Made by a program: the position numbers and the translations under genes. From assembly GCF_988242995.1 (NCBI RefSeq), contig NZ_OZ547043.1: a stretch of DNA of 64,000 nt; one strand, 5' to 3'. Under the pieces are notes generated by a model. It was not told where the DNA came from. It ran no database searches and saw only the letters and a list, made by a program, of their open reading frames with translations. This document shows positions 2,729 to 53,138 of the stretch, in pieces (the first letter of the stretch is position 1; every line of letters starts with the position of its first letter).

Positions 2729-3316
2729 ATGTATCGGATAGTTCTGGGGAAAGTTTCGACCTTAAGCGCAGCTCCTCTGCCACCGGGTTTACGCGAGCAA
2801 GCACCGCAAGGTCCACGACGTGAACGCTGGCTGGCGGGGCGTGCATTGCTTTCGCACACGCTTTCCCCGCTACCGGAGATCATCTATGGCGAACAAGGCA
2901 AACCGGCATTCGCGCCGGAAACGCCGCTATGGTTCAACTTAAGCCATAGCGGTGACGATATCGCCCTGCTGTTGAGCGATGAAGGCGAAGTCGGCTGCGA
3001 TATCGAAGTGATTCGCCCGCGCGCCAACTGGCGCTGGCTGGCGAACGCCGTGTTCAGCCTCGGGGAACACGCTGAGATGGACGCCGTGCATCCTGATCAG
3101 CAACTGGAAATGTTCTGGCGCATCTGGACGCGCAAAGAAGCCATCGTTAAACAGCGTGGCGGCAGCGCCTGGCAAATCGTCAGCGTAGACAGCACCTATA
3201 ACTCCTCGCTGTCAGTCAGCCATTGTCAGCTGGAAAATTTAAGCCTGGCGATCTGCACCCCTACCCCCTTTACGCTCACCGCCGACAGTGTGCAATGGAT
3301 CGATTCAGTTAACTGA
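2729..3316 (+). CDS. acpT: 4'-phosphopantetheinyl transferase AcpT
   Basis: 195-aa ORF starting MYRIVLGKV, position directly upstream of nikA. Confidence 0.85.
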   Translation: MYRIVLGKVSTLSAAPLPPGLREQAPQGPRRERWLAGRALLSHTLSPLPEIIYGEQGKPAFAPETPLWFNLSHSGDDIALLLSDEGEVGCDIEVIRPRANWRWLANAVFSLGEHAEMDAVHPDQQLEMFWRIWTRKEAIVKQRGGSAWQIVSVDSTYNSSLSVSHCQLENLSLAICTPTPFTLTADSVQWIDSVN

Positions 3317-44952: not shown

Positions 44953-45981
44953 TTATGCAGTAACGACTTCCGGTATCAGCGAAGCAATTTGCTTACGCCA
45001 TTGCGCTTGCTCCTGTTCGCCTTCTGTACGTTGACCATAAAGTTGCGCTATCTGCGTACCATCATGGGCAAACAATTCCAGACTGGTCACATAACCGTCA
45101 CTAGCAGGCTTACGGGTTACCCAGGTTTCAGCAATGCTCTCTTCTAATAGATGAAGAGTAAACGTCGGGTTAAAAATATTCAGCCAACTTTTCATTGGCA
45201 CCACTTTTTCTACCACGCCAGTGAAAATCTGTACGCAGCCACGGTTGCCAACAAACACCATGATTTCATTGCCATCCTGCTGTGCAGATTCAAGAATTTG
45301 CGCCAACGCACTGTTGGATACTTTGCAGGCCAAATCGTCTGCCACCAGATTGAACGCCTGTTGGCGCGTCAGGTTGTGGCGCTTGAGCAACGTAAAAAAC
45401 TGATGAACGTCGGTCATCGCCCGCCACTCTTGCTCAACCACACTGGCATCGGCTCGCATTTGAACGACTGGCGCATCACCGGCTTTTAACTCAAGCGACG
45501 TATTCTCATCGGTGATAAACCGTGCCAGAAGCTCACTCCATGCCGCCATATCGGTATTGTCGGTGGCATAAACTTTTAGTAATGCATCGCCCTGATGATC
45601 AAAGAACTGAATACTCTGACGTTCGCCACGAGTCGTATTTTCTTTGATGTGGAAAACACTGGCCCATTGATTGAGAAACAGACGCAAATCCAGCGCGCGT
45701 GGATTGAGGATCAATCCGGCATGTCCGTTCAAATGCTGGTTTGTGAACGCACCAACTTGCTCATGGACTGCATATTCATTACGGCAAATACATTTGGTCT
45801 CGCCAACACTTTCGAGCGCCGCCAGAATGTCACGGATATCGCCGCACATCCGCCACGCATCGTGCGTGACGCGCGCAAATGCCAGTTCTGCTTCGCTAAT
45901 ATTCATTAAACCTGCGATGTCACGCGCGTACTTTCCGGGATTTTGTTCTTTTAACTCAAGCCAGCGTGTGTAGTGGTTCAT
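44953..45981 (-). CDS. chuS: haem oxygenase / haem-degrading protein ChuS
   Basis: 342 aa; follows chuA in the same orientation. Confidence 0.85.
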   Translation of the reverse strand: MNHYTRWLELKEQNPGKYARDIAGLMNISEAELAFARVTHDAWRMCGDIRDILAALESVGETKCICRNEYAVHEQVGAFTNQHLNGHAGLILNPRALDLRLFLNQWASVFHIKENTTRGERQSIQFFDHQGDALLKVYATDNTDMAAWSELLARFITDENTSLELKAGDAPVVQMRADASVVEQEWRAMTDVHQFFTLLKRHNLTRQQAFNLVADDLACKVSNSALAQILESAQQDGNEIMVFVGNRGCVQIFTGVVEKVVPMKSWLNIFNPTFTLHLLEESIAETWVTRKPASDGYVTSLELFAHDGTQIAQLYGQRTEGEQEQAQWRKQIASLIPEVVTA

Positions 45982-46029: not shown

Positions 46030-48012
46030 TTACCATTGATAACTCACGAAAATTTTTCCATTACGACCATCCTGTGGGATGCCTTGCGGCGACCAGTACT
46101 CTTTGTCGAAGGCGTTGCCCAATACCAGAGTAGTGGTCATACCTTTGAGCGCCTGCTGCCCTTGATAACTGACGTAGAAATCATTCACACCATAGCCAGG
46201 TTGTTTGCTGTAGCTGCTGCTGATATGTGTTGAGCGATCGGCAAACGTACCGACCCAACCAACAGAGAAGCCACTGTGAGCGATCGGAATATTCAGGGTA
46301 CTGGTAACGGTATCCGGGTTAATGCTGGAGATATATTCCCCGGTATCGGTGTCTTTGCCGCGGGTACGGTTATAGGCCACATCAAGGCTAAACAGATCAG
46401 TGGTATATTTCGTCATCACATCCCAACCCCAGATTTTGGCGTTCGGGACGTTATACGACATAGTTGTCGCCGCCGCGAAATCGACGGTCGTGGAGATGTA
46501 ATCCTTCGCTTTGGTATCAAAGTAGCTGGCTTTAAATTCCAGGGCATCATTGGACAACATCAGGTCATCAAAACGCAGCCCAAAACCGTACTCCTGAGTT
46601 TCGTTAGTTTCCGGACGTAAGTTCGGGTTTGGCACCCAATAGTTGGTATAGAAGCGACCAATCGAGAAGTGCTTAGAATCGTTATACATTTCGCCCATCG
46701 TCGGGGCGCGGAATGCCTGGGCATATGAGCCAAATAACATCAGCCAGTTGGTCGGGTTGATAGTCATCCCCGCACGAGATGACCATTTGTCAGCATCAAC
46801 ATCTTTGTAGCCGTCGCTGCTACCGCGATAACTGTCATAGCGGGTTCCGCCAAGCAGGGTAATCGGCAGATCGCGTAAGGTGATCTCATCCTGTAGCCAG
46901 CCAGAGCTAAAATCGATTTTTGCTTGCGGGAAGCCCGTCGTCGCGCCGCCCGGATGTTGTTCCTGACGATAATACTCACCGCCATATGTCAGTAAGTGAG
47001 AAGCGAAACTGTCGGCAAATAGAGTGGAACGGTTCTCCAGCCTGGCTCCTTTTGTTATCTGTTCACGATACTCGCCGGAACTCCCCGTGTTTTGCGCATT
47101 AATACGGACTTCCGACCAGTAAATTTTTGCATCTGCATTTAACCAGTCGTTGCCCTGCGGGGCGAGTTTATAAGAAAGCTGCGCATCGCGTTGAATTGTT
47201 GAACGATCAACCATCGGGTTGCTGCTATCAGAAGCTTCAACGGTCTGCGGATTTTTTGGTTCACGCGCGTCGTTGTTGTAGTAACGCACTAAACCGCTCA
47301 GAGACTGGGCTGAATCAATTTGCCAGGTCCCTTTCGCCAGCATGTTATTAATGGACTCGTCATTCGGCGTGGTTTCACCATTGCTCTGGCGTAAATCACC
47401 CCGATCGCGACTGGACCAGGCCACAATACCATCCAGATTTTCAGTTCGCCCAAACGCGCTCGCGCCTAATCCCAGGCTATGGTCCCCCGTGCCGCCAGTA
47501 CCAAAGACACGAAAACCACTACTTTGTCCTTCCTGCAATAAATCTTTTGCATCGACCGTATCGTAGGAGATCACTCCACCCAGCGCGCCACTGCCATACA
47601 GTAATGCTGAAGGTCCGCGAACAATCTCAACACGCTTGATCAGCGCCGGATCAAGAAAAGTACCATTCAGGTGTCCGGTATCCGTTCCCTGGCGAACACC
47701 ATCGACAAGAACCAGCACGCCGCGATGATCATAGCCACGCATATTTACATCCTGACCGTTGGTTCGTCCGGTACCATCAAGAGTAATTCCAGGAACATGA
47801 CGCAGCAGATCGGAGGCTGAAGTAGCCGTTTGATTTTCAGGAGCGGAAGTGTCGATGACGCTGACCATCATAGGCGCTTCGAAGGAACTACGGGCATTCC
47901 CCGTTGCCGTAACGGTCATGGTTTCAGTAGCAAAAGCAAACGTTGGCAAGGTGGCAGAAACAGCCAAAGCCAACAAACTCAAACGCAACGAGGTAAATTG
48001 CGGACGTGACAT
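46030..48012 (-). CDS. chuA: TonB-dependent outer-membrane haem/haemoglobin receptor ChuA
   Basis: 660 aa; signal peptide, TonB-box-like ETMTVTA, C-terminal ...KIFVSYQW terminal Phe/Trp beta-barrel signature. Confidence 0.92.
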   Translation of the reverse strand: MSRPQFTSLRLSLLALAVSATLPTFAFATETMTVTATGNARSSFEAPMMVSVIDTSAPENQTATSASDLLRHVPGITLDGTGRTNGQDVNMRGYDHRGVLVLVDGVRQGTDTGHLNGTFLDPALIKRVEIVRGPSALLYGSGALGGVISYDTVDAKDLLQEGQSSGFRVFGTGGTGDHSLGLGASAFGRTENLDGIVAWSSRDRGDLRQSNGETTPNDESINNMLAKGTWQIDSAQSLSGLVRYYNNDAREPKNPQTVEASDSSNPMVDRSTIQRDAQLSYKLAPQGNDWLNADAKIYWSEVRINAQNTGSSGEYREQITKGARLENRSTLFADSFASHLLTYGGEYYRQEQHPGGATTGFPQAKIDFSSGWLQDEITLRDLPITLLGGTRYDSYRGSSDGYKDVDADKWSSRAGMTINPTNWLMLFGSYAQAFRAPTMGEMYNDSKHFSIGRFYTNYWVPNPNLRPETNETQEYGFGLRFDDLMLSNDALEFKASYFDTKAKDYISTTVDFAAATTMSYNVPNAKIWGWDVMTKYTTDLFSLDVAYNRTRGKDTDTGEYISSINPDTVTSTLNIPIAHSGFSVGWVGTFADRSTHISSSYSKQPGYGVNDFYVSYQGQQALKGMTTTLVLGNAFDKEYWSPQGIPQDGRNGKIFVSYQW

Positions 48013-48040
48013 AGCGATTCTCCATGAGGAAAATAAAAAA
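48013..48040 (-). promoter_or_regulatory. FourU-type RNA thermometer hairpin sequestering the chuA Shine-Dalgarno
   Basis: mRNA 5'-UUUUCC-UCAU-GGAGAA-3' about 7 nt upstream of the chuA AUG; U-tract pairs with GGAG. Confidence 0.6.
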
Positions 48041-48300
48041 TGCTGGCTGCCTGGGTTAATACCGGGGTGGCTGGCGAAAAATAAATTTATTTAAAATTCA
48101 GAGCGATAATATTCGCCGGGTGAGTTTACAGGCGTTTATATCCCATGAAATTGCCTGGTATCTCGGCAAATACGCAAAAGCACGCCCTCTTTGTCAGGCA
48201 AAACGATATGCCCCATCAGGAGTGAAGAGCGCTGTGCGTTATCCCTTGCAAATGCTATGGTTTTGTTATCCATATGGTCGTGTTTTGTTAAGCGCGAACG

Positions 48301-48323
48301 TGATAATGAGAATTATTATCGAT
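48301..48323. promoter_or_regulatory. Fur box (tgataatgagaattattatcgat) in chuA promoter region
   Basis: Close match to GATAATGATAATCATTATC consensus, about 290 nt upstream of chuA. Confidence 0.6.
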
Positions 48324-48652
48324 CAATTTTTTATGATCAAGCTTTTTTTTAACCGCCATTAACACAATAAACAGGGGGTTATGAAACTTATCCTGCGCCC
48401 TGGAAACCACTTTGTTTTTATGGTTATTCCCCCATGACCTCATCACTAAACTTTGTCGTTAACAGTGATAATTTTCTCTTCGCTTTGCTCTGCAAGCCTC
48501 GATATCTCTGGGTTCTCAGCTTTTTCCCGCGATGAAATTTAGTCGGTAACAAGAACGTTAGCTGACGAAGCATCTTGATAAAAATCAAAAATAAATACGC
48601 TTGTAACGCCTTGCGTATTGAATCGACGGTTGTATTTCATATATAACTCAAA

Positions 48653-48685
48653 TGATAATCATGATCATTCTCAATTTGATAAGAG
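48653..48685. promoter_or_regulatory. Fur box (tgataatcatgatcattctc plus adjacent aatttgataag) upstream of chuT
   Basis: Close match to Fur consensus immediately upstream of the chuT ATG. Confidence 0.6.
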
Positions 48686-48695
48686 TTCTCATATT

Positions 48696-49610
48696 ATGCC
48701 AAGGATCATCACCAGGCCGTTTCTTTTTTCCCCACTAACGTTATGTATTTCAGCCGTGGCCTCTGCCGCGAAGACCGCGGTAAAACGAAAAAAATTGTTT
48801 ACGGCAGTACTGGCTCTTAGCTGGGCTTTTAGCGTAACGGCTGCCGAACGTATCGTGGTCGCAGGAGGATCGCTGACGGAGCTAATCTACGCGATGGGCG
48901 CTGGCGAACGCGTGGTTGGTGTCGATGAAACGACATCTTATCCACCAGAAACCGCCAAACTGCCGCATATTGGCTACTGGAAACAACTCAACAGCGAAGG
49001 CATTTTGTCACTTCGCCCGGATAGCGTAATTACCTGGCAGGATGCCGGGCCACAAATTGTGCTCGACCAATTACGAGCGCAGAAAGTCAACGTCGTCACC
49101 CTGCCGCGTGTGCCTGCCACCCTTGAGCAGATGTACGCCAACATTCGCCAACTGGCAAAAACGCTACAGGTTCCTGAACAAGGCGAGGCGCTGGTGACAC
49201 AGATCAACCAACGCCTGGAGCGAGTACAGCAAAACGTGGCGGCCAAAAAAGCCCCGGTTAAAGCCATGTTTATTCTCTCCGCAGGCGGAAGTGCGCCACA
49301 GGTTGCCGGTAAAGGCAGCGTCGCGGACGCCATTCTTTCGCTTGCCGGAGCAGAAAACGTCGCAACCCACCAGCAGTACAAAAGCTACAGTGCAGAATCA
49401 CTGATTGCGGCCAATCCAGAAGTGATTGTCGTAACCTCACAAATGGTCGATGGCGATATTAATCGGCTACGTTCTATTGCCGGAATTACCCACACTGCCG
49501 CATGGAAAAACCAGCGCATTATCACCGTTGATCAAAACCTGATTCTGGGAATGGGTCCGCGTATTGCTGATGTCGTTGAGTCTTTACACCAGCAGCTTTG
49601 GCCGCAATAA
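48696..49610 (+). CDS. chuT: periplasmic haem-binding protein ChuT (304 aa)
   Basis: Start at MPRIITRPF downstream of Fur box; signal peptide; ORF-track start 48618 would place the Fur box inside the CDS. Confidence 0.85.
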   Translation: MPRIITRPFLFSPLTLCISAVASAAKTAVKRKKLFTAVLALSWAFSVTAAERIVVAGGSLTELIYAMGAGERVVGVDETTSYPPETAKLPHIGYWKQLNSEGILSLRPDSVITWQDAGPQIVLDQLRAQKVNVVTLPRVPATLEQMYANIRQLAKTLQVPEQGEALVTQINQRLERVQQNVAAKKAPVKAMFILSAGGSAPQVAGKGSVADAILSLAGAENVATHQQYKSYSAESLIAANPEVIVVTSQMVDGDINRLRSIAGITHTAAWKNQRIITVDQNLILGMGPRIADVVESLHQQLWPQ

Positions 49611-52097: not shown

Positions 52098-52145
52098 TCC
52101 CCCGGCGCGGAATCTCCGCGCCGTAATGTCGTAACGGAGTTTTGC

Positions 52146-53138
52146 GTGCTCAAGGATTCACTCTCTTCCGCCAGGATCTTTATGGGGCTATCACTATTAT
52201 TGCTCGCTCTGGTGCTGTTCGGTGCCAGTCAGGGAGCGTTAAAGATCAGTTTTGATGCCCTTTTTGATGAGGAATACCGCGATATCTGGCTCAATATTCG
52301 TCTACCACGGGTTTTGCTGGCGGTGCTGGTAGGTGCAGCGTTGGCAACCGCCGGGGTAATTATGCAGGGGCTTTTTCGCAACCCAATGGCTGACCCTGGA
52401 TTACTCGGCGTCAGTAGCGGTTCTGCATTAATGGTTGGCGTTGCTATTGTGCTGCCCTTCTCCTTCCCAGTGGTGCTGGTGCTCTATGAGCAAATGGTGT
52501 TTGCCATTGCCGGAAGTTTAGTGGTCTGCACCATCATTTTTCTCATCACGCAGCGCCATCGCGATGGCAGCATGATGCAATTATTACTCGCCGGTATCGC
52601 CATCAATGCCCTGTGCGGCGCAGCGATCGGCATCCTGAGCTATATCGGCGATGAGCAGCAGCTACGACAACTCACATTGTGGATGATGGGCAATCTTGGA
52701 CAGGCGCAATGGCCGACGTTATTGGTTGCCAGTTCATTCATCCTACCGGCCATTATCGCAACAACTTGTCTCGCCGGAACGCTGAATTTACTGCAGCTCG
52801 GTGATGAAGAAGCCCACTACCTCGGCGTGAACGTTAAGCGTAAACGCCAGCAATTACTGTTAGTGAGCTCACTGCTCGTTGGTGCCGCCGTATCGGTAAG
52901 CGGCATTATCGGCTTTATTGGCCTGGTAATCCCGCATCTGATTCGCATGACTACCGGAGCAAATCACCGCTGGCTAATCCCTTGTTCCGCCCTCGCCGGA
53001 GCCTGTTTATTGCTGATGGCAGACACGCTTGCCCGCACGCTGGTACAGCCAGCAGAAATGCCCGTGGGATTATTAACCAGCCTGCTTGGTGGCCCTTATT
53101 TTATGTGGTTGATTCTGCGAAATCGGAGGATCACATGA
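52146..53138 (+). CDS. chuU: haemin ABC transporter permease ChuU
   Basis: 330 aa polytopic FecCD-family permease. Confidence 0.88.

Follow-up and report, generated by a model that had tools for sequence, protein, structure and literature searches.

The best-described relatives of the chuA/chuT control region are the shuT promoter of Shigella dysenteriae and the chuA promoters of pathogenic Escherichia coli. For shuT, 5'-RACE placed the start of transcription 42 nt before the ATG, reporters revealed iron- and Fur-dependence, EMSA demonstrated direct Fur binding, and a 19-nt Fur site that deviates from the consensus in three places was assigned to +1..+19, a position downstream of the start that the authors called unusual (Wei, Kouse & Murphy 2017, PMC5458455). 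The promoter fragment cloned in that study was a 62-nt insert consisting of 26 nt upstream of the putative promoter followed by 36 nt to -1, and the residues mutated in its leader were U15/U16 and G32/A31, with mutation of U15/U16 abolishing thermoregulation (PMC5458455). For chuA, differential RNA-seq in EHEC Sakai gave a 5'UTR of 291 nt, in a paper that also cites repression of the gene by Fur (PMC9002310). ChIP-seq of Fur combined with RNA-seq in the UPEC strain CFT073 listed chuAS and chuTWXYU among the direct Fur targets (PMC7157518). Here we compare these systems with the corresponding locus in a stretch of 64,000 nucleotides, referred to throughout as the window. The Fur box of shuA/chuA itself was reportedly described by Mills & Payne and by Torres & Payne.

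The locus in the window belongs to a common E. coli type. The 851 bp around its two Fur boxes were 99.4% identical to E. coli O169:H41, and this stretch was found in 2236 of 5426 complete E. coli genomes. In the 99.4%-identical E. coli, the RefSeq names of the flanking genes are chuA and shuT/chuT, and the identities proposed in an initial annotation made from the letters of the window (chuA, chuS, chuT, chuW, chuX, chuY and chuU) agreed with that RefSeq annotation. On the minus strand lie chuS (44953-45981) and chuA (46030-48012); on the plus strand chuT-W-X-Y-U follow one another in the RefSeq order. The divergent intergenic region between chuA and chuT measures 683 bp, has a GC content of 0.39 against 0.49 for the 64-kb window, and carries the two Fur boxes 352 bp apart. 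Matches, rarity, conservation and positions of the boxes were computed in this analysis. Fur dependence, start sites, the shuT EMSA, ChIP-seq and the thermometers are published results on near-identical sequences, and sequence identity served to transfer the start sites mapped in S. dysenteriae and EHEC Sakai to the window. The RfaH ops element (GGCGGTAGnnTG) had no match with two or fewer mismatches in the intergenic region.

We scanned the window with the 19-nt Fur consensus GATAATGATAATCATTATC, which is palindromic, so that every site scores on both strands. The initial annotation had pointed to tgataatgagaattattatcgat at 48301-48323 and tgataatcatgatcattctc at 48653-48672 as close matches to this consensus, and both strings lie at these positions. 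Box 1, within the former 23-mer, has the core GATAATGAGAATTATTATC at 48302-48320 and matches at 17/19 positions; it is the chuA-chuS operator and spans about -17..+2. Box 2 occupies 48648-48672 and combines the core GATAATCATGATCATTCTC (48654-48672, +1..+19; 16/19) with an overlapping register at 48648-48666 (-6..+13; 15/19, that is, four mismatches), shifted by 6 bp as in the usual Fur arrangement. These were the sole sites in the 64 kb with three or fewer mismatches: counted on both strands, four matches were observed against 0.01 expected from 100 dinucleotide shuffles, none of which reached four. Apart from the two boxes, the next-best match in the window had five mismatches. With start sites taken from the literature on near-identical sequence, each box overlaps a core promoter or start site, box 1 covering -17..+2 of chuA and box 2 -6..+19 of chuT.

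On the minus strand, a promoter scan identified the chuA promoter at 48312-48340 with a score of 9/12 (-35 TTGATC at 48340-48335, a 17-bp spacer and -10 AATAAT at 48317-48312), and this -35/-10 pair overlaps box 1. Alignment of the O157 and window chuA leaders showed no indels; given the 291-nt 5'UTR in EHEC, the chuA start site would thus fall inside box 1 at about 48303, with the -10 hexamer 9 nt away, a placement that is uncertain and good to about 2 nt. The resulting 5'UTR occupies 48013-48303 on the minus strand (291 nt) and ends in a FourU RNA thermometer. Rfam model RF02597 (shuA_thermo) matched 48010-48041 on the minus strand at 60.1 bits, against a gathering score of 58, immediately 5' of the chuA start codon, and this match fixes both start codon and leader. 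Beyond the shuA thermometer, the Rfam scan returned sub-threshold noise only.

The leader also varies between lineages. The window carries the non-B2 allele, and in the middle of the 5'UTR (48094-48290, minus strand) the window and O157 sequences diverge strongly from the B2/UPEC allele, with the flanking ends of the UTR invariant. Strains with either allele encode an identical ChuA protein (one RefSeq accession), and the segment may be an allelic or recombination block where sRNAs and Rho bind. We considered whether the 5'UTR could be a decayed small gene of the hemP type; its 45-aa ORF (48136-48273, minus strand) gave noise only and no HemP match in Pfam or NCBIfam, and the other frames are rich in stops. 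Farther upstream, at -68..-80 from the chuA start site, the motif AAACAGGGGGTTA at 48371-48383 has 11 of 13 columns invariant in six Escherichia lineages.

On the plus strand, the published description of shuT can be transferred directly to the window. It places +1 at 48654 and the Fur site at 48654-48672, and the 36 nt of the cloned promoter fragment reach back to 48618; because shuT U15 and U16 both correspond to T at 48668-48669, the register of the transfer is confirmed. The chuT promoter (48618-48647) consists of -35 TTGAAT at 48618-48623, an 18-bp spacer and -10 TATAAC at 48642-48647, and is collinear in alignment with the promoters of relatives in other genera. Its 5'UTR (48654-48695, plus strand, 42 nt) contains an RNA thermometer whose 5' arm, +14..+18, comes from Fur-box DNA and pairs with the SD sequence AAGAG at 48681-48685. 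In the predicted fold U15/U16 pair with G32/A31, the residues mutated in the shuT study. One stretch of DNA therefore acts both as Fur operator and, in the transcript, as anti-SD arm of an RNA thermometer.

Conservation was measured as the fraction of invariant columns over six Escherichia lineages, namely three E. coli alleles, two deep-branching E. coli and E. albertii. All 19 columns of box 1, 18 of the 19 columns of box 2 and all six of the chuT -10 were invariant, compared with 35% of the spacer at 48384-48556 and 50% of the mid chuA leader at 48094-48290. Both boxes and both promoters are held fixed while their flanks diverge. In each of 31 related loci spanning about ten genera, a Fur-like box occupied the equivalent place, 32-48 nt ahead of the start codon. 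A 41-mer spanning box 2 was the same as in the window in 1876 of the 2236 chu+ E. coli genomes and different in the other 360. The two variant genomes that were inspected carried T48675C, in the thermometer loop, and one of them also T48648C, between -10 and +1, with the 19-bp core intact in both.

These results identify the two boxes as real, already characterised Fur operators, known from S. dysenteriae, EHEC and UPEC. They confirm the observation and support its interpretation as Fur control of chuA and chuT. We hold with high confidence that the divergent chuA-chuS and chuT-W-X-Y(-U-V) units each have their own sigma-70 promoter and, on it, a separate Fur operator of the classical kind. 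When iron is sufficient, Fe2+-Fur dimers on box 1 would cover the chuA -10 and start site, and Fe2+-Fur on box 2 and its shifted register would extend from just past the -10 to +19 of chuT, so that binding of RNA polymerase or formation of the open complex would be blocked at both promoters, presumably by steric repression. Under iron limitation Fur would leave and both units would be transcribed, with translation then gated by the RNA thermometers in both 5'UTRs and chuT translated from the ATG at 48696. The proposal that the boxes are placed for iron-dependent repression of chuA-chuS and of chuTWXYUV held at the chuA-chuS and chuT promoters, where the published starts, carried over by sequence identity, fall at the boxes and where the ChIP-seq targets chuAS and chuTWXYU lie; a single chuTWXYUV unit, with chuUV co-transcribed from the chuT promoter, is at most putative, and one paper gives chuTWXY and chuUV as separate operons. 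The chuY-chuU gap (52098-52147) held no Fur-like site, the best match having nine mismatches, and hence no third Fur box before chuU; it carries a GC-rich hairpin, cccccggcgcggaatctccgcgccg.

Several other accounts of the boxes were weighed against Fur control. The intergenic region is AT-rich, as is the Fur consensus, so both matches could in principle be chance resemblances to which Fur does not bind. This is very improbable given the excess of matches over shuffled sequence, the invariance of the boxes between diverged flanks, and the published EMSA and reporters (PMC5458455) and ChIP-seq (PMC7157518). Somewhat less improbable, though still unlikely, is that box 2 is conserved mainly as the RNA anti-SD arm of the chuT thermometer, with Fur binding secondary. 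The predicted pairing of +14..+18 with the SD and the loss of thermoregulation on mutation of U15/U16 (PMC5458455) speak for such a role, but SD pairing uses just five of the 19 positions, yet 18 are invariant; the hairpin is no more stable than those of shuffled sequences (z 0.25); relatives with other UTR sequence retain a Fur-like box; and EMSA and Fur-dependent reporters attest Fur control at this site (PMC5458455). Both roles can coexist.

Two further readings concern which transcript or coding sequence the boxes belong to. Box 1 might drive a plus-strand transcript of a small ORF of 18 aa (48382-48438) rather than chuA, since a strong SD-like AGGGGG precedes the ATG at 48382 and the conserved AAACAGGGGGTTA motif lies just before it. 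We rejected this ORF as a gene: its ATG is lost in three of the six lineages and its peptide is altered by non-synonymous changes and frameshifts. With no plus-strand promoter found at box 1 by the promoter scan and the chuA start site mapping within the box, the reading has hardly any probability left. Equally improbable is translation of chuT from the TTG at 48618, where the ORF list opens the frame and which would bury box 2 inside the coding sequence. The frame is indeed open from 48618, and upstream in E. albertii too. However, the -35 hexamer, which other genera keep as such, begins with this TTG, and since transcription starts only at 48654, 36 nt further on, the TTG is not part of the transcript and cannot start translation. 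The ATG at 48696-48698, which the initial annotation had rightly preferred, on weaker grounds than these, is the RefSeq start in all three alleles inspected (304 aa) and the start used in the S. dysenteriae study. An SD, AAGAG, stands 10 nt before it and none before 48618, and both ATG and SD are collinear with their counterparts in a homologous receptor gene of other genera. Fur control of the two divergent promoters, with chuT starting at ATG 48696, thus remains the reading that we prefer.

Upstream of the chuT promoter the alignment of the Escherichia lineages brought out, as a third invariant block, a palindrome, TTGATAAAAATCAA (48575-48588, no strand; TTGAT-AAAA-ATCAA), that matches all 10 specified bases of the FNR consensus TTGAT-N4-ATCAA and is the sole perfect match in the window. 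In first-order Markov simulations, 0.11 perfect matches were expected in 64 kb and 0.003 in an intergenic region of 683 bp. All 14 of its columns were invariant in the six Escherichia lineages, and the 36-mer around it was identical in 2227 of the 2236 chu+ genomes. Across the window and the 31 related loci, TTGAY-N4-ATCAA occurred with at most one mismatch in all 32 sequences. The half-sites were kept while the N4 spacer varied, with more than 10 different spacers among the 32. The distance from the palindrome to the Fur core was 76-80 bp in all 32 sequences after correction for register; in Citrobacter amalonaticus the palindrome lies 1 bp nearer the -35, judging the alignment by eye. FNR activates from centres at -41.5 (class II) or at about -61.5, -71.5, -82.5 and -92.5 (class I), a rule reportedly set out by Wing et al. 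in 1995. The palindrome is centred at -72.5 from the RACE start of chuT, one base off the class I position -71.5, and we infer that it is a candidate class I FNR activator site of chuT.

An APEC study reportedly found chuA-lacZ expression to be lower in an fnr mutant and a 'chuA promoter' probe to be shifted in EMSA, and ascribed both to a different, weak site that it predicted. Neither the window nor any of three E. coli alleles contains that 'chuA' FNR site, TTGTAATGTTTCAA. Reading the palindrome instead as the class II site of a divergent minus-strand promoter to chuA is unlikely: the required -10 reads TTGTTA by eye, and the gene upstream of this promoter in Proteus points the same way as the operon. 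An anaerobic activating input to chuT-W-X-Y would come from FNR bound at about -72. ChuW is an oxygen-sensitive radical-SAM enzyme of anaerobic haem degradation, and the sRNA FnrS is reported to repress chuS, which encodes the oxygen-dependent ChuS, anaerobically; such an input would fit both. Full expression of chuT-W-X-Y would then need low iron (Fur off) together with anaerobiosis (FNR bound), mirroring the action of FnrS on ChuS. Direct FNR input, if real, would explain how aerobic (ChuS) and anaerobic (ChuW/ChuY) haem degradation are coordinated in the gut in E. coli and Shigella.

Other sequences flank the palindrome. Just upstream, GTTAGCTGACGAAGCATC at 48557-48574 was 78% invariant, against 35% in the spacer. 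In the relatives, the FNR box is followed directly by an NsrR-like 11-1-11 inverted repeat (about 757-781 in locus L009, with equivalents in L010-L036) of the form AAGATGCATT-N-...CATCTT; an example is AAGATGCATTA-T-TTCTACATCTT, which may be compared with AAGATGCATTTAAAATGCATCTT of ytfE. In Escherichia this repeat has decayed (window 48587-48612). The passages searched of the CFT073 NsrR ChIP-seq paper contained no chu peak.

A search with ChuT, taking one genome per species, returned 34 loci and bears on the origin of the chuT promoter. Outside Escherichia, the ChuT match starts at residue 29-51 (about 32 in most loci). In these relatives, the T gene begins with MKK directly after the stop codon of a TonB-dependent receptor of about 710 aa, only about 30% identical to ChuA, and T-W-X-Y follow. 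The first ~29 residues of Escherichia ChuT (MPRIITRPFLFSPLTLCISAVASAAK) are homologous to the signal peptide of the Citrobacter receptor (MLPRINNRPFFLSALTLCVSGAVSAAS), with 17 of 32 residues identical (E 6e-11). In an alignment of the upstream DNA, the FNR palindrome, -35, -10, Fur box, SD and ATG are collinear across genera. The ChuT leader (48696-48845, plus strand, 50 residues) accordingly divides into a receptor-derived signal peptide to about 48782, a junction at about 48783-48788, where CGA stands in place of the ancestral ATG, and then the signal peptide proper to ChuT; the leader has two hydrophobic segments split by KRKK. The ShuT structure PDB 2R7A begins at residue 49, so the crystallised protein lacks about 50 residues. 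One further locus returned by the search, L004 (JAIJJM010000641.1), is a 1.9-kb contig binned as a 'Collinsella sp.' metagenome-assembled genome with a ChuT 99% identical to that of the window, and is probably a mis-binned E. coli contig.

The simplest reading of these alignments is that Escherichia inherited a receptor-T-W-X-Y operon, deleted the receptor body and thereby joined the first ~29 receptor codons in frame to chuT, in which case ATG 48696 would be the ancestral receptor start codon. We consider it somewhat more probable than the contrary that the chuT region as a whole consists of the retained receptor promoter, Fur box, SD, ATG and signal-peptide codons, together with a deeply conserved FNR site at about -72. 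Two oddities of chuT, namely that its Fur box lies past the start site and that its leader is a tandem one of about 50 residues, would be explained by a receptor deletion. In the literature searched, whose coverage is incomplete without key subscription papers, neither an FNR box at chuT nor a receptor-gene origin of its promoter is described. Both are leads of modest interest. The Fur-box finding itself re-identifies textbook regulation of a virulence-associated haem-uptake locus, and its practical use lies in annotation, where ATG 48696 is correct and the mechanical ORF start at TTG 48618 is not.

Set beside known systems, both boxes resemble the classical Fur boxes of E. coli iron-uptake promoters, which are also palindromic and overlap core promoter elements, and box 2 shares their 6-bp-shifted register; its core, however, lies downstream of +1, whereas classical E. 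coli Fur boxes lie over -35/-10. The chuA side shows no material difference from the described shuA/chuA promoter, which is likewise Fur-repressed with a 291-nt 5'UTR ending in a FourU thermometer (Kouse 2013, PMC3660397; Sy 2022, PMC9002310). On the chuT side, compared through its published description, shuT of S. dysenteriae maps base for base onto 48618-48695 in its 42-nt 5'UTR, Fur site, U15/U16 and 36-nt promoter; that paper (PMC5458455) mentions neither an FNR palindrome 65 bp upstream nor a receptor-gene origin of the promoter. Both features come into view in comparison with Citrobacter, Kluyvera, Enterobacter, Klebsiella, Providencia and Proteus (L008-L036; homologous stretches at about 785-960 and 2900-3010), where control elements and signal-peptide codons are collinear with those of Escherichia chuT. 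In these relatives the homologous promoter drives the receptor and then the T gene, an arrangement from which Escherichia appears to have lost the receptor body.
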